Positions 2,296 to 28,435 of a stretch of 64,000 nucleotides of DNA are shown here, piece by piece (position 1 is the stretch's first letter; every line of letters starts with the position of its first letter). A program made the position numbers and the translations under genes. This DNA is from Dictyostelium discoideum (Eukaryota), in the NCBI GenBank assembly GCA_000004695.1, contig CM000150.2, positions 384,001 through 448,000 of the forward strand. Reading direction: 5' to 3'. Under the pieces are notes generated by a model. It had not been told where the DNA came from, ran no database searches, and saw only the letters and a program-made list of their open reading frames with translations.

Positions 2296-3553
2296 TTAAA
2301 TATCAAGATTGATTAAACCTAAAGATTTTAATAAACCCTTATTTTTACAATGATTTTGATGAAAACAACAAATACAACCCAATTCATCAGATAAATGAAC
2401 ACCTTTATCACAATTTTCTTCACAACTTGTACATTTATTCAATTCTGAAGATTTACTAATGATAATACCTAAATGATCGAAAATTTCTTCACAACTACCA
2501 GTACCACCTTCAACAGAGTCAACTAAAAACATTGAATTTGAGGAAGAATCATTATTATTATTATTACTATTACTATTAAAAGATAATGATTCTAATTTGG
2601 TTATAAAATTTAATGATTCTTCAATATCATTCTTTGGTGAAATTACTAATGGAATAGTCGAAAGTATTTGATGAATCATTGTATGTAATGAAACTCTTGT
2701 ATCACCCATCTCTAAAAGATCAAAAATCTTTGAATCATATTCTTTTCTATCAATTGTTAATGATCTTTGAAGTTTATTTCTTAATTCTTCGATTTTTTTA
2801 TTAAAAATTGGTTTAAAAATATCTCTTTTAAAATTATAATTTTAAAATAAATAAATAAATAAATTAATATAAACATATATATTTTTTGTTTTTTTTTTAA
2901 CAAATTAATTTTATATACTTTACCTAGTGGAATTTGTAAATGAAAATTCAATACATGGTGCTTCAAAATTAATTTGTAATGGTTGTTTTAATTGAATATT
3001 TTCAATTTCAGGTTTTGATTGACGATTTTGATCATCATAATTATTTGAATTACTAAAAGTTTTCTTTTCATATGAACCAACAGAAGTTGTATAGATACCA
3101 ACACCAAATGAAACTAATAATTTTACTTGAGAATTTGATTTAAAATTGAAAAAAGATTGTTTTAAAATTTGTTTCATTTCAACTGTATTTATTTTATTTG
3201 CAGTTGTAACAATACGAACACTCTTTGGAAAATGAATTGGTTTTACAATTGCAAAACTATTTGAATATTCATTATTATTATTATTATAATTTTTATTATT
3301 GTTTGTAGTATTTAATGAAAGTTCTAAAACTTCAAAATGTGAAATTGGGCCACTATTATTTCTAAAACTTTCAGTATTATGAGTCATAAATATTGAACCA
3401 GGGAATAAACGTGTTATACTTTGAGATTTTGAAACTTTTTCAATGATATCACCATTAATTGAATTTAATTTAACATTTACAATATCATTTGTACCTGAAC
3501 CACCTCTTAATGATATTGATAAATGATGATAATCATTAGATTTCCATAAACCA

Positions 3554-3594
<41 letters not shown>

Positions 3595-5333
3595 TATTGA
3601 TTGTAAATAAATTTTATTATTATTTAATAAATTTTGTAAAATTAATTGAGAATTTGGACCAAAAAGTTTTAAAAGATAATTATAATTTGATTGTATACCA
3701 ATTTCAGAAGTTGCACAAAGTAAATGTGATGATAAAATATTTGGAAAATCACCATTGAATGAAAGTTTTTCAGCTTCACCTTCATAGAGTGACATTGGAT
3801 TATTTGAAAAGAATTTGTCTAATGGACTATAGTAATCTGGTATGTATAGTACTAAACCAAGTTTTGATCTACCTACTCTACCAACACGTTGTTTCCAACT
3901 CATTTTACTACCAGGATAACCAATGATTAGACATGCATCCAACTCTGAGATATCGACACCTGCCTCCAATGCATTGGTTGATAGGATTACATTTACATTA
4001 CCACGTTTCAATTGTTCCAATGTTTCCTTTTTATGAGCGGCTGATAACGATGCGTAATAGGGTCTTACCAATTTAGCTTTCTGTGAGAATTTACCATCAT
4101 TTGAAAAACTTTCATATAGAGTATTCAATGATTTAATTGTATTAAAGAATACAATACCCTTTATACCATACTGAATCCAATTGTTTATAATTATCGATGG
4201 TAAATAAAATGAATTTTTAGTTGGTCTAAGTGTTAGAAATACTTTTCCAAATGATCCCGAACCATTTCTATCGATTAAATGTAATCTTTGAGGTGACTCA
4301 TTTTGTCTACTAATGGTTTTTAATCCAATTTCAATTGGATTACCAACTGTAGCTGATGCCATTAAAAATTGTAATCTATTACTATTTAAAAAATTGATTT
4401 TTGAATTTAAATTAAAATGATAGTTTTGAATACGTCTAATTAAATTTATAAAATGACAACCCAATGCGCCAGAATATGTATGAATTTCATCTAAAACTAT
4501 GAAACGAAGATCGCTGAACCATTTTCTCCAACTATCATCCGAACCACTTTTTAAACCACCTCTATAGAGTTGATAATGTAACCAATCGGGACTTGTTAGG
4601 ATGATGTCGGGTTTGGTTGACTTATTTGAAAATAGTCTTGATAATGAATCTTTTTGAGTATCACGACTAAAACTATTAATATTTAAACGTAAATCAATGG
4701 GTAACATTTGATTCAACCTATTGATTGAGTTTAATTGATCATTTGCCAATGCATTCAATGGTACTAAAAACATTGCACTTGGAGTTTTAATTAAGGGTTG
4801 TTTTAAAACGTTTTGAGAGATTTGTAAATTCTTTAATTTTGCTTTTAATATCTCTTCAAATATCGGTAGAAATAAACAAAGTGTTTTACCACTTGATGTT
4901 GGTGTTGTAATAATAACATCATCACCTTGTATTACCTTTGAACGACATTCCAATTGATGACTATAAAGTTTATTATAACCCATTGATCTTAATACTCCAC
5001 TCAATATTGATGGTATCTCTTTTGGAATTTCCAATAAATTTGGTTCTTGATGTTCCGTACAATATAAATGAGTAATTGTACCTTTTAATGAAATTGCTAT
5101 CTTTTTAAATGGTTCATGTTTAATATTTTCTTCAATTTCTTCTTCTTTAATTAATATTTCATTATTATTATTATTATTGCTATTGTTATTATTAAATAAT
5201 TTATTATTTAATAATGATTCATTAATTTGTTGTTGTTGTTGTTGTTGTTGACTCGAATTTGATTTATATGATTGTATGAAACTATCAAATGATTTATTTA
5301 TATCTTCATTCTTACTTTTTATACTATTTATTG

Positions 5334-5421
<88 letters not shown>

Positions 5422-5785
5422 TACACTATTTACACTATTTACAATTGAGTTACTATTTGAATTACTATTTCTATTATCCAAATTATTTATATCATTAAAA
5501 TCATTATCATCAAATTCAAACTCGAAATCATCTTCAATTGTTACCGATGTTGTATCAATGTTTGATTGTTTATTATCATTATTGCTATTATTATTATTAT
5601 TATTATTGACATTAATTTTATTGTTGTTACAATTACTATTTTTATTTTCTTCATCATCGTCAAAGGGATCAAATGGTTTTGTTGAAGTTGGTTGGTTTTG
5701 AATTAAAGGTGTTGTTCTTTTTTGAAATGATATATGGTTTGATGCTTTATTGAAGTTATTATTATTATTATTATTATTAATATTG

Positions 5786-5822
<37 letters not shown>

Positions 5823-6186
5823 TATTATTATTGTGATTACTTATATTATTGATATTAACATTATTATTAGGTATTAAACTGTTGAAGGATAGAGCAGGTA
5901 AATCAAATGGTGATAAATCAGAATCTGAAATAGGTTGGTTACTACTATTGTTTTGTTGTGATGGAAAATTTAGGGAATATTTTGCTTTATTTTCGTTATT
6001 ATTATTATTATTATTTATATTATTACTATTATTAGTTGAGAAAGAACCAAATTGTCTTTTTGAATTATTTCTAACATTTGAATCTAAACCATTTAATAAT
6101 TCTTGTTGAGAAAATAATCTTTTCTTTGGGTTTATAAAATCATTTTTATAACTATCACTATCACTAATTTTATTATTTATATTCAT
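2296..6186 (-). CDS. Hrq1/YprA(MrfA)-like DExH-box ATP-dependent helicase with a C-terminal Cys-rich (DUF1998/MZB-type) zinc module, two exons: complement(join(2296..2824, 2924..6186)). About 1263 aa. The N-terminal ~400 aa are poly-Asn/Gln low complexity.
   Basis: Helicase motifs in the 1088-aa ORF are TPTSSGKTL (Walker A), DEIH (motif II), MASAT (motif III) and QRVGRVGRS (motif VI). On the minus strand the apparent stop TAA at 2920-2922 sits inside ACTAG|GTAAAG, a canonical donor. A 99-bp intron ends at ...TTTTAAAAG| and joins in phase to ...RDIFKPIFNKKIEELRNKLQRSLTIDRKEYDSKIFDLLE. That segment continues into the 137-aa ORF MGDTRV..., which carries CTSCEENC...CICCFHQNHC. Confidence 0.8.
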
Positions 6187-6445: not shown

Positions 6446-11584
<5,139 letters not shown>

Positions 11585-14416: not shown

Positions 14417-15601
14417 TTATTTATATAATTTTTTATGATAAAAAAGTTCTTTTTTTTCATTATCAAATGGTAAAAATAATGAATCAATATATGATTGGTC
14501 AACGTCATATATTGATGAGGGAGAGAATTTTGGTTTAAAAGATTTATCAATTAAAGCCCCATTGATGCCTTGAAATAAGTCTTTTCTTGAACAAATTCTA
14601 TTACCAATTCTATTGTCATTAATTAAAATTTCTTTTAAATCTAAATTTAAAGAACGATGTACACTATTGAATGAAACACAGATTGAAGTTGGACATGAAT
14701 TCATTAAAGTAGTAACAGTTTTAACTAACCATTCTTTTTCATTTGGATTATTATTTTCAAGTAATTCTTTATTCAATTTATTAAATATTTCTGAAACTGA
14801 ATTAAATTTTGTATTAAAACATCTTTGAATAATTTTATTATATTTCACAATATGGGATGTCTCTTTAGTAATTTTTAAATTTCTTTTATATTTATTTAAT
14901 ATAAAATCAATATCATTTTTATTTGATATATTTGGTGATAAACACAAATCATTTGTAACTTGATTAAATAAATGAAATGGTATATGATTTTGAACAAGAC
15001 CAAGCTTTAATAAATCTGGTGAATTAATAAAATTTCCAACCATTGCCAAATATAAACCAATTGCACCTAATTTAGAAAGGTAGTAACTAGTACCGACATC
15101 TGGAAAGTATCCAACCTTATTCTTAAAATTTTAAAAATTTTATAATTAGTAAAAATGAAAATAATAATTTAATATTCCCCACCAACTTACTTCTGGCATT
15201 GACCATTTAACATTTTCACTAACAATTTTATGACTACAATTAATACTTATACCAACACCACTACCAATTACAAATCCATTGATTAATGAAATAATTGGTT
15301 TTTTAAAATTGTGAATTAAATCAACAAGAGAATACATTGATGAAAGTATTGGAGTGACTCCTTCTGATGTATTTGATTTTTCAACCAACTCTTTTAAATC
15401 ACCACCAGTGGAAAATGATTTATTATTGTTACTACTTAATAAAACAAATTTAGTTTCCGGATCATTATTATATTCATTTAATTTATTAAATAAATCAATT
15501 GACATATTTAAATTTAAAGAATTTAATGATTCACTTCTATTTATTAATATTTTTCTACTTCCATTTTTAAATTCTTCAATTAAAATATTTTTTAAATTCA
15601 A
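14417..15601 (-). CDS. 3-hydroxyisobutyryl-CoA hydrolase-like, paralog B. A diverged tandem duplicate with two exons: complement(join(14417..15121, 15191..15601)). About 371 aa.
   Basis: Same architecture as paralog A: KSFSTGGDLKEL, GFVIGSGVGISIN, WSMPE|GTAAGT. A 69-bp intron is followed by NKVGYFPDVGTSYYLSKLGAIG. The intron sits at the same position as in paralog A. The oxyanion-hole residues have diverged (FCSGG to FSTGG, MGGGVG to IGSGVG). Confidence 0.75.
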
Positions 15602-16349: not shown

Positions 16350-19300
16350 TCAATTTGATTCATTTCCAAATGTAATTGAAGAATTTTTATTTGATTTTGA
16401 ATTAATTGAAGAAGAATTTAAATCAGTTGAGGAGGAAGAAGAACTTGTATTTTTCATTTTAACAATTGACCTTATACTCTTTCTTGTATATTTACCAAGT
16501 GGAATTTGATTATTTGTTACAAGTAATACAATGACAGGAATCATTTCAGTTACGATTAAACCAACAAAAGAGAAAATAATATTACTTGGATTAACAGAAA
16601 CCAAGATTACAATGAAAATACAATGTAATACAAAACCGGTACCACATAAAACTGTGATAACAAAAGTTCTATTTCTTTGTTTATTTGCAGAGGTTTGAGA
16701 GGTTTTACTAGAGAGAGCTGATAATTTATTATAAATTTGTCTACCATAATAAATGAAAGCAATACCAATTGCCAAAGAAAGACAAGCTTGTAAAACTGCA
16801 TAAAATATTGAAACTGCATTTTGTGGTGTAGTCTGTTCCAAATTAATTAATAATCTACCACCACATGATTTTGGTGTTGATTGTTTAGTGAAATTGTAAA
16901 CTATAACAATTATAATGAAAACTATATAAAGTACAACATTGATTAAAAACACCATCATATTAATACGACCGTAAATATCATTACTAAACGATGATGCGTT
17001 ACTTAACATATACCAAATTACAATTACAATTGTAAAAGCAGTGAAATATAAAAATGTTGGTAAAACCACTAAAATATAATTTCCAACGGTTGTAGTCTCT
17101 GTAATGATACCATTTGGTAAAATGAAGAAATAAATTGATCTAATCAAAGAGAATGCAGTAAGTACTAAAAATAAAAGATGTACTAATTTAAATGGTTCAG
17201 TTGATAAAACTTTTTGAATTGTAAAGAAACCAAGATGTAATAAACCATAAATACCTAATAAACAAAATAAAACTGCTAAAACATATAATAAACCTGATGA
17301 ACTATTATTAAATGGTTTAAAATTTTCATTTTCCCAATTTGAAATTCTTTCAATTAAAAAGTATGATCTTTTACCAATTTCAATAAAATTAATTATTTCA
17401 CCACGGTCATTTAAAATTTCATCATCATCATCGTTGTCATTAGTTTTTTGATTTGAATTAAAACCATTTGAATTTTTAAAATTAATTAAACAACAATATC
17501 TATTTTTTTCATCAATTTCAATTAAACATTCTAATGGTATTAATTGACCTTGATCATTATTTTCTAAATAACCAAAATCAATAATTGGATTCTTTTTTGA
17601 ATTTCTTGAAATTGTTTGTGACATACAAATTTTAAAATTTATAACACCCTGATCAAAAATTTCTAAATTTATACCATCATTTAATAGTTTACCAATTACT
17701 GCTTTTTTATTATTAAAGAATGAATAATCATCAGGTTTATCAAATGATACAAAAGTTGAAGATAATGAAATCACTTTTTTAGATAAGAAAGTTTCTTTAT
17801 AAATTTGACCAATTGAAATTGAAACACAAGAACTTTCATCGATTGAACCCAACGAAAATGATAATGAACCATCATTGAAAATGGTAGTATTTGATGGATC
17901 ATAACATGGTTTTATAACTTTTAAAACTGGTGTATCTAAATCATTATAACAATCATCACCAATACCATCGGATGAACAACCACATGATAATGCCTCTAAT
18001 GAATTCTTTGAATTTGATGTACGACATAAAATTTCAGATTTATATAATAAATTGGTTCTACTTTGTGCTGCATTATCAAATGATGTGAAAAATCTACCTA
18101 AATCCAATGACAATTGAAAGTTGGCAATATATTTAACAGGTTCATCATTTTTAATCCATTTTAATGGTACAGCCACTGCAGGTGTCCAAATACCAGATGT
18201 CCAGCTAAATGGTTGTTTCCAAGTTTCACCAGCATATTTACAATCATTTTCATTCTTTTCATTAAATCTAAAAGTTAATGGTAGTAAATAACCACCTGGT
18301 GATCTATCAATACCATAACATAATGGTTCATATTTTGTTTGTTCACATTCATCTCTATTGGCAGCAGGTAAAGTCCACCACCATTTTCCACCAGTTTGTT
18401 CGCAAGTGGTTTGATCTATAAATGTTAAATTGAAACAACCAAATGGTGAATCAATTTGAGTTTGAAATTCACAAGTTGGTAAACTTGCACCAATCAATGC
18501 TTTACTAGTACGTGGATATAAACATTTTGGTTGATAAGGATTACTATCACCGATTTTATAATTAAAATAATATTGATCATCACATTTACCAGAGTTTTCA
18601 CAATCAATTTTATTTGTACATGGAATTTCATATAATCCACAAAATAAACCAAATGAATTACAACCATTAACTAAATCATTACAATAAGTACATTGATCAT
18701 ATGAAAAATCACCACAATTTTTAAATACTGTATTTGAATAATCAGTTGAACAAGTACTTTCATTAATTGATGTATAAATACAATACATTGTTGATGATGA
18801 TTCATCAAACCATTTTTCATGTGATTCATTATTAATTTCTGGACAAACTGTAACTCCAGTTCCAAATGTTGATAATGGTATGAAACAACCTGTAAATTGT
18901 GAACATTCTAAACCACAACCAACTGTACAACTACCATAATTATCTGAACATTCACTTTCATCATTTACAGTAAATAAATCATAATCTACAAATTTATCAT
19001 TACTATGATCTTGTTTATAACAAACAAAATTATTGTTACCCGATTCACAAGATGATTGATTTAAAAAGTTTGAATCAACATAACAATTTCTAATTGGATC
19101 AGTACAATCACCACAGAAATAATCTGGTGGATTATTATTTAAACAATCATTAATTAAATTTGTAGTATCATAACCATCATACCAATTCATTGTACCTTGA
19201 TAATCTAACCAATTACAACGTGCTAAAGCTAAACAAGAATCCTTTGGGAATGCTTCAACTAACCATGTGAAAATATTTAAACCAGTGAAACAACTATCAT

Positions 19301-21975
19301 AAACTATTGATGGTGTAGTTTGATCTAAACCAATAACCAATGGAAAACAAAAACCATTTGTAGAGGTACTTGATGAATATGCAAAACTTTTTCTAGCCCA
19401 TGATGAAGTACCCAATGGATAATTACAATCATTAGTTTGATGTTTTTTCATTAATTCAATTGATAATTCTCTTTCATTTTCAAAATTATTATTTAATAAC
19501 CCCAATATTGATAAAACATCAGTTCTTAATGGTGTTGAAATATTTGATAATATACAACTTACAAAATTTAATTCCAATTCTGAATATGCAATTAAACATA
19601 ATCCATTTCTTTTATTACAACTAGTTGTAATATTTAAATTTGAAGAGTTATAATAATTTTCACAATCTAAATCCTCTTTACAAACAATTGGATAAATTGA
19701 TGGTTTACAAGCTCTAAAAACTTTATAAAGTGAATCTGTATAATAGTTTTGTTCATCTTGAGTTACACTACATTGTTCAAATTGTGTACCTGTTATAGTT
19801 TCAGAGAAAGTATTTAAAACTGATTCTGTACAATCTGGATATGAACATTTTTCATTCATTTGATCGTTATTTACACCATTGAATACTGTTGTTGTAATAT
19901 TTTGTAATCTTGGTCTACAAACTGATTTAAAAGTTGCATAAAAACTACAACATGGGTCATTGTAATAGTTGTTAATATCATTGGTTTCCGAGCAAAGTGT
20001 TGTATTTATTAAGGTTGTAGTTTGATTTAATATTAATAAATTCTCGGCCATTTTCTGACAAGAATTATAATCATCATAAAAACTTAACACATCTAAATAG
20101 TAACGTAATCCACTTATAGTTGATGAAGTTGCATTATCAATTGATTTTAAAACTGAATCGAAAATTTCATTAATTTTTGAAAATTTATTAAATGTACATT
20201 CTGGATTAACTTGATTACCAATTGATTTAGAACCAACTATTAAACTACCATTACCATAGACTAATCTATTTTTAAATGTTAATACTGTACTTGACAAATC
20301 CTCTTCATTAAAGAAATTATATGTATTACCATCAACTGTCAATGATATTATTAATCCAAATTGATAAGTATTTTTTAAAACTAAATTTGATGTGGTTTCA
20401 TTAAATGCAATACCATTAAATTTTGGTACATTTAATGAACGTTCACCATAAATTGATGGTACTGGATATAATGGATTTAAATTGGTTCTTGGAAATGTTG
20501 GTAAATAAACTGTACATTCAACATCATAATTTTCACAATTATATTTTTTACCACCATTTTTTTTAACTTCTAAAAAACTTGTACCTGCTAATGCCCAAGT
20601 ACCAGATAATGATGGATTATTTGTAATATCTCTTAATTTATATTTACCAAATGTTGAAATATAAAAATAAACATCTGATTCATAAAATGTATAAATTCCA
20701 AAAAATAATGTTTTATTATTTTCACCTTTATTTGGACATAATTGAATTATTAAATTATCATCCACTAAATAATAATAATAAAAAAAAATAAAAAAAAAAA
20801 AAATAAAAAATAAAAGTTAATAAAATTTCAACTCTTGGTCTTATTATTAATTTTTTCAAAAAAAAACTTACAAGAAAATGTTGAAGACCATTTATAATTT
20901 GTATTTGAAAATTCTGATAATTCTAAAATATTATCAGTTGCAAATATATCAACATCATTTTGTAAAACAACATTTGAAATTGTTATATTTTTACATTGAT
21001 TAATTGTTAAAGAATATTTTAAAAATGAATTAACTGGTACAAGTGTTGGTATATAAACTTCTTCACCATCATTTAAGCATTGATAATCTGGATGAACATT
21101 TGTACAAGTTGGTGATGGTGATGGTGATGGTGATGGTGGTGATGGTGGTTGAATTGGAATTTCTTCAATTAAAACTTTATAAATTAAATCAGAACCAGCA
21201 CCAACATTTTTAATAGCAATATGAACTGTACCATAAGGATATTGTGAACGATAGTGACCTGCATAAGTTGTATTTAAAGCTGGTGATGATGGACACATTA
21301 CAATTGATGCATCACATTCTTCAGATTGTACAATTCTAGATGCACCATTTGCCAATGGATAGAATGGATAAATATCTGATGAAATTTCACCTAAACCTTG
21401 GATGGTTTTAAAGGTGATTTTATAACCTACACATTCTGATGACGCATAAAATCTATAAAGTTGATAGGATTGGTAATAGGTGTCTATGAAACCTTGAGTT
21501 TCATTACCAATTTCAATATCTTTCCAATTCATTTCACATGGTGTATAGAAAAATCTTTGTGAAAATAATTCATCACATACTTCGCATTCTGGTGGTCTAT
21601 CATCATATCCAGCTTCACAACCTTTATGTGTATAATCACATGGTGGACATTCACTTGGATATGGTGGACATGTTGCATTTGGACATGTATAACTTTCTAA
21701 TAAATAAATTGGTTCTTCAAAATAAATTGAACCACTAACAATTTTAATATTTGTATCTAATAAATTTAATGATTTAATTGTATAATTTGAATTTACATTT
21801 TTTAATTCAATTTCTTCACAATTTATAATTTTTAAAACTTAAAAAAAAAAAAAAAAAAAAAAGTTAATGGAAAAAAGTTAAAAATAAATTTTAAAAATAT
21901 CATTATTATAAAAAAAAAATAAAAAATCTTACCAATTATAAAAAAAAATAAATAAATAATTAATTTTCTAATCAT
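16350..21975 (-). CDS. 7TM receptor-like glycoprotein with a ~1350-aa Cys-rich extracellular domain. Three exons: complement(join(16350..20764, 20872..21837, 21933..21975)). About 1807 aa. The first exon is a 43-nt signal-peptide micro-exon.
   Basis: Exon 1 is ATGATTAGAAAATTAATTATTTATTTATTTTTTTTTATAATTG|GTAAGA, encoding MIRKLIIYLFFFII-. A 95-bp intron ends in a poly-T tract plus TAAG|, and the frame continues VLKIINCEEIELKN.... The 234-aa ORF 20828..21532 is internal to exon 2. Its apparent stop lies in the donor TCTT|GTAAGT, and a 107-bp intron ends TTATTTAG| at 20765. The 1471-aa ORF has seven hydrophobic helices near its C-terminus (LLYVLAVLFCLLGIYGLL ... IIFSFVGLIVTEMIPVIVLLV) and a Ser-rich tail. 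Confidence 0.65.
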
Positions 21976-22647: not shown

Positions 22648-24225
22648 TTATTTTTTATTTAAAGGGAGAATAACTTTTTGATTATTCATAAATGGTTGTA
22701 AAACTTTTGGAATTAAAACTGAACCATCAGATTGTTGATTATTTTCTAAAATGGCTAAAATTAAACGTGGTATAGCACAAGCTGTACCATTTAAAGTATG
22801 AGTGAATAATGGTGGTATTGAATTATCAATTTCATTATTATTATTACTATTATTATTATTATCATCATTTAAAATTTGTGGTGATGGAATAATTTTATAA
22901 TTATTTTCAACAAATTGTTGAATTTGGAAATCATCTTTTGTTGATTGATATTTTATATTTAATCTTTTACTTTGATAATCGGTGCAATTTGAAGCACTGC
23001 TGATTTCACCATATTCTTGTTTTGAAGGTATCCAAACTTCTATATCATATTTTCTGTATGCTGGTGCACCTAAATCTTCAGATGGCATATCTAGCACTCT
23101 GAAATGTAGACCTAATTCACTGAATAATTCAATTTGAATTTTTAAAAGTTCCTCAAGAATCTCATTAGATTCGTGTGGTTTTGAAATGATAAACATCTCA
23201 ACCTTACTAAACTGGTGTACCCTATAGATGCCCTTATTTTGCAAGCCTCTGCCAGCCTCGGGTCTGAAACAGTGTGAATAGCCCACCATTTTAATAGGCA
23301 ACTCTGCAGATTGCAATGGCTCCTCATTGGCGTACATACCCGCTAATGGGATTTCAGAAGTTGCCGATAGGCAAAGATCCCTATCCTTAATCCAAAACAA
23401 TTGGTCAGCATCTGAACGTGCATGAAACCCACAAGCTTCTGCCAAATTTGGGTGAATCAAATCTGGTGTTATCACAGACTGAAATCCGTATTTATAAGTT
23501 AGTTTAGAAAATGCCCAATAGGACAACGCCATTTCCAGCATGGCACCCTCCCTTGTGAAATAGTAGTATTTATGACCGGTGGTCTTTGAAGCCGATCGAA
23601 TCACTCCTAAACTCTCACCCAACTCTAAATGATCTTTAATTGGTTCATCTGGTTTTAAATAATTTGGTTTCTCACCAACCATTTTAATAATGTTTGCATT
23701 GGATTCTGCTCCTATTGGCACTGATGGGTGTGTATTATTTGGTATTTTCAAAGCTTCACTTGTGATCTCATTGAAGTATATATCATGTTTCTCTTCCAAT
23801 GCTATTAAATCCTCTTTCACTTGTTTACCTTGTTCAACTAATTCCAATCTATCATTTTTATTACTTTCACCACCACCTTTCATCATTAATTTCATCTTTG
23901 ATGCAATTTCATTTCTTTTTGCTCTAAATGTATCCAATTCTTTCTTTATAATTCTATATTCATCATAATTTTTAATTAATTTCTCTAATTCAACTGGTGA
24001 TTTTCTTTTTATAATATTTTCTTTAATTTGATTTTCATTATCTTTTATAAATTGAAAATCAATTCTTGGTTTAATTTGATTAACAATAATATGTTGTTGC
24101 TGTTGTTGTTGATTAATTTCATTTTGGTCAATTTGCTTAATTTTACTTGTATAATATTTTAATAAATTTGAATTTAAATTTAATTTATTATTACATTGAT
24201 TAAAATTTTTAAATAATTTTAACAT
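22648..24225 (-). CDS. Seryl-tRNA synthetase (class II aaRS), bacterial/mitochondrial type, with an N-terminal presequence-like extension.
   Basis: A single 525-aa ORF. It has the coiled-coil tRNA-binding arm, NTHPSVPIG, motif 2 FRPEAGRGLQNKGIYRVHQF and motif 3 GTACAIPRLILAILENNQ. The N-terminus MLKLFKNFNQCNNKLNLNSNLLKYYTSKIKQ resembles a mitochondrial targeting peptide. Confidence 0.8.
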   Translation of the reverse strand: MLKLFKNFNQCNNKLNLNSNLLKYYTSKIKQIDQNEINQQQQQQHIIVNQIKPRIDFQFIKDNENQIKENIIKRKSPVELEKLIKNYDEYRIIKKELDTFRAKRNEIASKMKLMMKGGGESNKNDRLELVEQGKQVKEDLIALEEKHDIYFNEITSEALKIPNNTHPSVPIGAESNANIIKMVGEKPNYLKPDEPIKDHLELGESLGVIRSASKTTGHKYYYFTREGAMLEMALSYWAFSKLTYKYGFQSVITPDLIHPNLAEACGFHARSDADQLFWIKDRDLCLSATSEIPLAGMYANEEPLQSAELPIKMVGYSHCFRPEAGRGLQNKGIYRVHQFSKVEMFIISKPHESNEILEELLKIQIELFSELGLHFRVLDMPSEDLGAPAYRKYDIEVWIPSKQEYGEISSASNCTDYQSKRLNIKYQSTKDDFQIQQFVENNYKIIPSPQILNDDNNNNSNNNNEIDNSIPPLFTHTLNGTACAIPRLILAILENNQQSDGSVLIPKVLQPFMNNQKVILPLNKK

Positions 24226-27511: not shown

Positions 27512-28435
27512 TTAAGGTAAAACTGATTCAATTAAATTTGAAATTGGTGTATTTTTAACTTTTGATAATAACCAAGAATTATAATAACGTTCAATATCAT
27601 CAATTAATCTTGGTTGTAATGGATAATAACCAATTAATAAATTTGATTTTGAAAATGAAAAATTTTGATTAAAAGTTAAAACTTCAGTGAAAACATTATC
27701 ATTTGATTTTGGAATATATTGAATTGTTTTATTTGAATTACCAGAGATGGAAGCAATTGAAGTCACAATATCTTTAATTTTTTCATTAAAAGAATTTGCA
27801 ATTAAAGTTTGACCTTTTAATAATAAAGCATTTTTAACAACCAATTGATAAAAATGAACAAGATCAAAGATATGAATGAAACCTTGAACTAAATTTTCAT
27901 CACCATAAATTTTAATAGAATCATTTGATTTGGTTGCAGCTTCAAAGAAATAACCACTAAATGATTGATTCTTTCCATAGAGAATGGTTGGTTGAATGAT
28001 GATTGCACCCATTTCATTATAGGTTTTTTCAATTTGAACTCTCCAATCAATAAATTTATGAGAGAAATAAGGAGAAGATTCATTTGATAGAGTTTTACAA
28101 TTACCATAAATTGTTGAACCAGATGTATAAATAAAGATTGTATTTGGTTTTTCTTTATGAACTTTTAATAAAGCATCTTGAACAATAAATGGTGTTGTAA
28201 AATCAACTAAATCTGCAATTGTATCAATAATAATATCAACTTTTAAAGCAATTGGTAACCATTTTTCAACTTGTTTTGCATCTGCAATAATTGGAATAAT
28301 TTCATTCTTTAATAATTGATTTGCACTTTCTTCTTTTCTAGTTAAACCGTAAACTTTATAACCATTTCTAACTAATCCTAATGAAATTTCTGATCCAATA
28401 AATCCACTTGAACCTAATATTAAAATTTTTATCAT
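27512..28435 (-). CDS. NAD(P)-binding atypical short-chain dehydrogenase (NmrA/epimerase-like Rossmann protein), 307 aa.
   Basis: MIKILILGSSGFIGSEISLGLVRNGYKVYGLTR fits the GxxGxxG Rossmann fingerprint. Confidence 0.6.
   Translation of the reverse strand: MIKILILGSSGFIGSEISLGLVRNGYKVYGLTRKEESANQLLKNEIIPIIADAKQVEKWLPIALKVDIIIDTIADLVDFTTPFIVQDALLKVHKEKPNTIFIYTSGSTIYGNCKTLSNESSPYFSHKFIDWRVQIEKTYNEMGAIIIQPTILYGKNQSFSGYFFEAATKSNDSIKIYGDENLVQGFIHIFDLVHFYQLVVKNALLLKGQTLIANSFNEKIKDIVTSIASISGNSNKTIQYIPKSNDNVFTEVLTFNQNFSFSKSNLLIGYYPLQPRLIDDIERYYNSWLLSKVKNTPISNLIESVLP

Follow-up and report, generated by a model that had tools for sequence, protein, structure and literature searches.

The 64,000-nt stretch of Dictyostelium discoideum DNA analyzed here (assembly GCA_000004695.1, contig CM000150.2, positions 384,001 to 448,000; hereafter the window, to whose first letter all coordinates refer) carries on its minus strand the gene DDB_G0267602. 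From its sequence, the product is predicted to be a type-I-oriented seven-transmembrane (seven-TM) protein of the secretory pathway, with its N-terminus outside, and a putative glycoprotein. The reading that we favor, tentatively, is that it may be a non-cleaving receptor with a layout like that of adhesion GPCRs (G-protein-coupled receptors), built on a seven-TM domain of the TOM1 type. In the mechanism that we propose, a disulfide-locked, N-glycosylated ectodomain would face the outside or a lumen and engage a ligand, a surface or a particle. Movement of the ectodomain would travel via an uncleaved GAIN-like domain, and via the strand and linker at the C-terminal end of that domain, to the helix bundle of TOM1 type, which would then alter its cytoplasmic face, the basic third intracellular loop and the basic, Ser-rich tail serving as the read-out.

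The gene has three exons, and the coordinates of these and of all protein segments given below were checked by translation:

21933..21975, minus strand: exon 1, 43 nt; ATG at 21975; codes for most of the signal peptide (MIRKLIIYLFFFII, then base 1 of codon 15)
21838..21932, minus strand: intron 1, 95 nt, phase 1, GTAAGA...T-run...TAAG
20872..21837, minus strand: exon 2, 966 nt; end of the signal peptide and ectodomain to residue 336/337
20765..20871, minus strand: intron 2, 107 nt, phase 1, GTAAGT...TTATTTAG
16350..20764, minus strand: exon 3, residues 337-1807 and the stop codon (16350-16352)

The list of open reading frames (ORFs) contains a 1471-aa ORF (16350..20765) and a 234-aa ORF (20828..21532), both on the minus strand with a stop between them, as the first-pass annotation had described. 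The splice it had proposed, from the donor TCTT·GTAAGT to the acceptor TTATTTAG (dots mark splice or cleavage positions throughout), removes the 107-nt phase-1 intron and joins the ORFs in frame, the next exon beginning with TGGATGAT. Its 95-bp intron and 43-nt first exon were also recovered, as ATAATTG·GTAAGA, a T-run and TAAG·TTTTAAAA, again in phase 1. The spliced coding sequence of 5,424 nt has one terminal stop and yields the 1,807 aa that had been claimed, letter for letter the D. discoideum AX4 “hypothetical protein” of RefSeq (XP_647157.1), EAL73254.1 and UniProt Q55GM7, the product of DDB_G0267602. The three-exon minus-strand model is correct, and the micro-exon and the ORF join are not new: the first-pass annotation had rebuilt the existing RefSeq/dictyBase gene. 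An upstream start exon is required because a TAA just before the acceptor closes the frame of exon 2, in which the first Met comes only at residue 116, although residues 31-115 include many positions that are invariant across species; read-through of unspliced intron 1 meets a TAA at 21841-21839. The DNA is extremely AT-rich (about 22-29% GC), and an open frame of 1,471 codons in such DNA, together with the 42-96% identity of the product to six other dictyostelid protein clusters, argues for a real gene and against chance.

Intron 2 has the same position and phase (...S·LDD...) in D. firmibasis, D. purpureum and P. violaceum. Two of these species also have a phase-1 micro-exon within the signal peptide, of 49 nt in P. 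violaceum and of 40 nt, with an unchanged acceptor position, in D. firmibasis; no signal-peptide intron is present in the model of the D. purpureum orthologue. A seryl-tRNA synthetase gene lies directly upstream of the orthologues in all four species compared, D. discoideum included. The C. fasciculata orthologue DFA_01574 (824 aa; L004 1578-8548, GL883010.1) is an N-terminally truncated model, the missing ectodomain parts being detected by tblastn in the upstream DNA, from L004 3222-4249 onward, inside a neighboring ‘Clat_adaptor_s’ model. We also observed that the D. purpureum orthologue contains an extra 95-nt intron (L001 7508-7604) at residues 1469/1470, inside the seven-TM domain within IRSIYFF, that is absent in D. 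discoideum.

Downstream of the signal peptide, the protein was divided into the following segments:

20637..21817 (including intron 2), minus strand: N-terminal ectodomain, residues 22-379; a head rich in Cys plus two segments rich in beta-strand, with conservation mainly among close orthologues
18129..20636, minus strand: ectodomain core, residues 380-1215; conserved throughout the family, with numerous invariant Cys and motifs such as DPCC, FCGxC and GxCSD
17295..18128, minus strand: juxtamembrane domain, residues 1216-1493; long helix at about 1225-1266, then about 12 beta-strands
17385..17477, minus strand: acidic insert of low complexity (...NDNDDDDEILND...), about 30 aa, residues 1433-1463, in the final beta-hairpin ahead of TM1
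17346..17375, minus strand: last ectodomain beta-strand, residues 1467-1476 (GKRSYFLIER; YFPIxR...W in the family consensus), ending 17 residues short of TM1
16515..17294, minus strand: seven-TM domain, residues 1494-1753, of the THH1/TOM1/TOM3 type
16353..16514, minus strand: cytoplasmic tail, residues 1754-1807; a basic stretch, then a Ser-rich stretch

The seven TM helices proposed in the first-pass annotation were supported in three ways, and its signal peptide by the first of these. Kyte-Doolittle hydropathy gave an N-terminal signal sequence and exactly seven spans within residues 1494-1753 (approximately 1494-1516, 1530-1552, 1566-1590, 1604-1627, 1653-1676, 1702-1724 and 1731-1753). 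An AlphaFold2 run on residues 1216-1775 with six sequences, of low confidence (predicted local distance difference test, pLDDT, 36) and used for the helix count only, placed seven long helices at these spans and a short helix after TM7. Lys and Arg residues numbered 16 in the predicted inside segments versus 4 in the outside segments, which fits an N-out/C-in orientation. The tail is indeed Ser-rich, at 37% Ser/Thr, and the third extracellular loop has only about 6 residues. Two figures had to be revised: the ectodomain, put at about 1350 aa with more than 100 Cys, spans about 1,472 aa (residues 22-1493) and contains 76 Cys, out of 82 in the whole protein, as well as 22 N-glycosylation sequons.

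Of the whole protein, the seven-TM domain is conserved best (frequency of the top residue 0.40, versus about 0.30 elsewhere). Its family-invariant residues are R1545, P1572, C1637 (in the second extracellular loop, ECL2, within ‘CGGR’), Y1658 and E1743, and P1746 is nearly invariant (at least 90%). We assign the domain, from sequence matches among its relatives, to the THH1/TOM1/TOM3 family (PF06454). At a Pfam gathering threshold of 25 bits, the profile was matched by the orthologues from P. violaceum (30.9 bits) and C. fasciculata (41.1) and by a JGI/Logan orthologue (P0006, 34.6), and by 13 of 29 diverse family members, with 79.2 bits for a D. firmibasis paralogue pair; the matches span nearly the whole 273-position model. 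Since the matching orthologues are 52-64% identical to the D. discoideum protein over residues 1216-1775, the homology transfers to its seven-TM domain; divergence or compositional bias of the D. discoideum sequence is too great for it to match PF06454 directly. UniProt names the orthologues ‘THH1/TOM1/TOM3 domain-containing protein’. No 7tm_2 (PF00002) match was found by Pfam in the D. discoideum protein or the 29 family members. The first-pass annotation had assigned the ectodomain to no receptor class, which holds; the seven-TM domain does have a class, which emerges through orthologues and paralogues. PF06454 has been proposed as GPCR-like, yet it is not an established G-protein-coupled class. 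Separately, the invariant C1637 (at about 16863-16865) has no partner Cys at the top of TM3 and may be free or bonded to the stalk. A profile alignment over ECL2-TM5-TM6 put C1637 opposite the ECL2 Cys of rhodopsin at a non-significant E-value of 0.33; we rejected it as evidence of a relation to rhodopsin.

For the ectodomain, Pfam searches with five tiles (E<=5) and with the 29 family members matched no ectodomain family, and nothing significant turned up among PDB sequences, whether these were searched with the protein alone, with the profile of the family or with that of the juxtamembrane segment. These searches bear out the statement of the first-pass annotation that the ectodomain is neither a Venus-flytrap domain nor a Frizzled cysteine-rich domain, as no ANF_receptor/VFT, Fz, 7tm_3 or Frizzled match was found. 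The sub-threshold hits to DEP, DUF3040 and a BACOVA_00961-like family (whole protein, five tiles and isolated seven-TM domain) were discarded as noise. No internal repeats were detected by self-BLAST or by tile-against-tile hhalign. Conservation is nevertheless marked: 33 Cys are invariant within residues 380-1495 across 40 sequences, and the motifs DPCC, CCxPR, FCGxC, GxCSD and FxWxxGxW recur. An AlphaFold2 model of residues 380-1495, made with the family alignment, reached a mean pLDDT of 83.0 and a predicted template modeling score (pTM) of 0.81, which indicates a compact, rigid multi-domain body and not beads on a string.

The domain and fold check suggested in the first-pass annotation came back blank for the tiles in Pfam and gave GAIN/ZU5 neighbors for the modeled ectodomain in Foldseek. 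The top probabilities against the PDB were for the CD97 GAIN domain (0.96), the latrophilin-1 GAIN and HormR domains (0.84) and ankyrin ZU5A-ZU5B (0.82), and GAIN/ZU5/FIIND beta-sandwiches are the only known structural neighbors of the modeled ectodomain; the core (380-1215) has no structural neighbor in the PDB, and a search of viral folds in BFVD found nothing. Judging from the model, the ectodomain probably contains a fold of the GAIN/ZU5 superfamily, and it is quite likely that this fold lies in the juxtamembrane segment 1216-1493. This placement is suggested because no other segment has a long helix (here at about 1225-1266) that precedes some 12 beta-strands, the order of GAIN subdomains A (helical) and B (a beta-sandwich of 12-14 strands); because 1216-1493 can accommodate the 150-190 residues that align with GAIN chains; and because it is modeled at pLDDT 86-95. 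Such a fold would give the adhesion-receptor idea of the first-pass annotation a concrete structural basis.

In 28 family members the consensus of the last hairpin is C-x-x-[IV]-x-x, a variable turn and YFPIxR...W. We infer that the juxtamembrane domain is non-autoproteolytic, because the hairpin equivalent to the GAIN HL·T/S site has no conserved His-Leu-Ser/Thr. The acidic insert in this hairpin is present only in D. discoideum-group orthologues and is disordered in the model (pLDDT <50); the other members have a variable turn of 5-6 residues. Elsewhere in the segment, LSSTF (about 17751-17765, residues 1337-1341) lies mid-juxtamembrane at pLDDT about 56-73, with LSSxF at consensus level in most of the 28 aligned members. 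The motif loosely resembles the L·T-x-F and F·S cleavage motifs of GAIN/ZU5 domains, but it lies off the expected hairpin and has no His.

DDB_G0267602 is one member of a large, undescribed family, amoebozoan as far as its members are named, with several paralogues per dictyostelid. A word-indexed homologue search, whose list of 8,000 candidates appears to be saturated by low-complexity TM words and words from AT-rich genomes, had returned six orthologue clusters, all from Dictyostelia, and alignment queries gave 1 and 6 proteins, versus 792 proteins at E<=1e-3 (157 at E<=1e-30) from an exhaustive HMMER profile search with residues 576-1775. Many of these are 1,600-1,800 aa long and match the profile end to end. 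Hidden Markov models (HMMs) of the regions N3 (401-575), M1, M2, juxtamembrane and seven-TM are co-linear in distant members, while the first 400 residues are recognizable mainly in close orthologues. The named members include paralogues in D. citrinum, D. cf. discoideum, D. dimigraforme, D. firmibasis and D. purpureum, as well as proteins of Cavenderia fasciculata (DFA_00667, DFA_05485), Acytostelium subglobosum and the variosean Planoprotostelium fungivorum; other members are unnamed metagenome, metatranscriptome and EukProt sequences, some from GC-rich organisms. Two gene models in the family are unusual. P0012 (D. firmibasis RB653_004106, 3,464 aa) holds two successive copies of the family sequence, seen as a pair of PF06454 stretches and as two blocks of region-HMM matches, and is probably two tandem paralogues merged into one gene model. 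P0055 (Planoprotostelium PROFUN_13067, 2,331 aa, UniRef name ‘Guanylate cyclase’) has a kinase at 198-451, N-terminal to the ectodomain, which is topologically odd; we rejected a receptor-kinase fusion and judged it probably a merged gene model.

Several observations weigh against a surface receptor with a GAIN-like stalk. Foldseek gave no match against the PDB at E<=1e-3, the best E-values being only 0.03-0.04, and it reports no aligned query residues, so that we infer the juxtamembrane placement; the beta-rich segment 1079-1224 is an alternative, weaker site for the fold match. Neither in the PDB nor in Pfam did the juxtamembrane profile match an entry for GAIN, GPS or ZU5. The last hairpin and strand of the 28 members lack both the HL·T/S triad and the TxFAVLM agonist motif, and the helical subdomain is apparently a single long helix. 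The D. discoideum protein did not match PF06454, full length or as the isolated C-terminal 333 aa, even at E<=10, and a literature search for DDB_G0267602 and Q55GM7 found no paper that mentions the gene. The plant relatives add to this: Arabidopsis TOM1 was the only candidate that did not bind the G-alpha subunit GPA1 in a split-ubiquitin assay (PMC2530877), and plant TOM1 is described as a 7-pass protein of intracellular membranes that co-purifies and acts with ARL8 as a host factor of viral replication (PMC3234234). Given the lack of G-alpha binding and the intracellular action with ARL8, a cell-surface signaling role is unproven.

The same plant findings, and the homology of the seven-TM domain to THH1/TOM1/TOM3, are what would favor an endolysosomal or vacuolar membrane protein, a reading that we regard as unlikely although it deserves some weight. 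There, the seven-TM domain would act as a TOM1-like scaffold that recruits an ARL8-type GTPase or other cytosolic partners, and the large domain would be luminal; protection, cargo binding or content sensing in lysosomes or phagosomes, in place of sensing of the exterior, would be its task, on which we place the same low expectation. The 22 sequons and 76 Cys suit a luminal domain equally well. However, plant TOM1 has no large N-terminal domain, and a conserved, rigid ectodomain of 1,470 aa with a GAIN/ZU5-like stalk is typical of surface receptors. A little less probable, in our estimate, is a purely adhesive or structural surface protein for substrate or cell-cell contact, in which the seven-TM domain would be a mere multi-pass anchor that does not signal by conformation. 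The huge, rigid (pTM 0.81), Cys-rich ectodomain and the many paralogues per species, as often found in adhesion families, are consistent with this, but the seven-TM domain is the most conserved part of the protein (0.40 versus about 0.30), and its invariant intramembrane R1545 and E1743 and its ECL2 Cys exceed the needs of an anchor.

Cleavage is addressed by a further alternative, a tethered-agonist receptor like the canonical adhesion GPCRs, whose ectodomain would come off at the last hairpin, either through autoproteolysis or through an external protease at the acidic loop, and leave the YFLIER strand exposed as an agonist. We consider this very improbable: the GAIN/ZU5 superfamily is autoproteolytic, and the last hairpin is exactly where the D. 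discoideum-group proteins have their disordered insert of about 30 aa, but the 28 family members show no conserved His-Leu/Phe-Ser/Thr there, the hairpin is mostly a short variable turn of 5-6 residues, and the insert is clade-specific. A mis-joined model or pseudogene, in which unrelated ORFs are linked by chance splice-like sites, has only the stop between the two ORFs in its favor and is effectively refuted by the exact RefSeq match, the full-length orthologues in at least seven dictyostelid protein clusters, the conserved intron position and phase, the conserved synteny and the invariant residues that flank each intron.

The non-cleaving receptor that we tentatively favor would differ from known systems in several respects. 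Adhesion GPCRs (class B2; ADGRL1 4DLQ, CD97/ADGRE5 9MQR and 8IKJ, CELSR1 8VY2, BAI3 4DLO) have a 7tm_2 domain in place of the PF06454-type domain, the HL·T/S triad and TxFAVLM, neither of which occurs in the DDB_G0267602 family, and a helical subdomain A that is here reduced to about one long helix. Pfam detected no HormR, EGF, cadherin, LRR or other known adhesion domain in our protein, in which the GKRSYFLIER strand, 17 residues before TM1, occupies the position of the tethered-agonist strand. Lacking 7tm_2 and GPS, the product is, by its domain content, not a member of the adhesion GPCR class. According to a 2025 analysis the GAIN-7TM module arose in stem holozoans (PMC12716839), whereas the named organisms with members of the DDB_G0267602 family are amoebozoan. 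A 2023 census of dictyostelid GPCRs detected no GAIN domains in amoebozoan family-2 receptors, and a term search of that paper found no mention of TOM1, THH1, DUF1084 or PF06454 (PMC10445921). According to Arac et al. (PMC3321182), D. discoideum has one GAIN domain in which the GPS motif is conserved; the DDB_G0267602 family has no such motif.

THH1/TOM1/TOM3 proteins (PF06454, formerly DUF1084; the tobamovirus-multiplication proteins of Arabidopsis) share the homologous domain and its seven TM helices, to which the DDB_G0267602 product adds a signal peptide and an ectodomain of 1,470 aa; in plants, the length is about 290 aa and the N-terminus is short. The ZU5/FIIND domains of ankyrin, UNC5B, CARD8 and NLRP1 (GAIN-ZU5-Nup98 superfamily) are cytoplasmic, whereas the domain here would be extracellular or luminal, and the autoproteolytic ones have H/S-F·S-type sites, with no such motif at the equivalent hairpin of our family. 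PKD1 proteins combine 11 TM helices with a PLAT domain and a C-terminal part that resembles a channel; our protein has seven TOM1-type TM helices and no REJ, PKD or PLAT match in Pfam. Polycystin-1/PKD1-like proteins resemble the layout proposed here in having a giant ectodomain with a GAIN-type domain immediately before the first TM helix (PMC11697300). The RSF (‘Remi-sans-famille’) seven-TM family of choanoflagellates and other protists, amoebozoans included, has a weak link to THH1/TOM1/TOM3 that was suggested by structure search (bioRxiv 10.1101/2025.04.15.649019). RSF proteins are described as consisting of the seven-TM domain only and as having a short extra helix with NxLQxxMNxL between TM6 and TM7, where our protein has a loop of about 6 residues, besides its giant ectodomain.

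The surroundings of DDB_G0267602 in the window include the following genes:

2920-6186, minus strand: DEAD/DEAH-box helicase
14417-15601, minus strand: enoyl-CoA hydratase/isomerase (ECH_2), split into two ORFs by an intron
22648-24225, minus strand: seryl-tRNA synthetase
27512-28435, minus strand: NAD-dependent epimerase

An uninterrupted ORF of 1,712 aa at 6446-11584 (minus strand) codes for a large uncharacterized protein with no Pfam match at E<=1e-5. No paralogue of DDB_G0267602 was found elsewhere in the window, and no tRNA genes were found in it.

As modeled, the architecture appears to be novel, with a giant new ectodomain and a GAIN/ZU5-like stalk on a TOM1-type seven-TM domain joining two known kinds of protein. 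What is new is the family, with hundreds of clusters in the sequence databases and an ectodomain that is absent from Pfam. If the GAIN/ZU5-like assignment of the juxtamembrane domain is true, Amoebozoa would have their own version of a receptor design that is deemed a holozoan invention, on a different seven-TM domain. This would bear on the evolution of adhesion-type receptors and on the cellular role of the TOM1 seven-TM family, whose plant members are known mainly as host factors of viruses. Since Dictyostelium is amenable to genetics, the question is open to direct testing.

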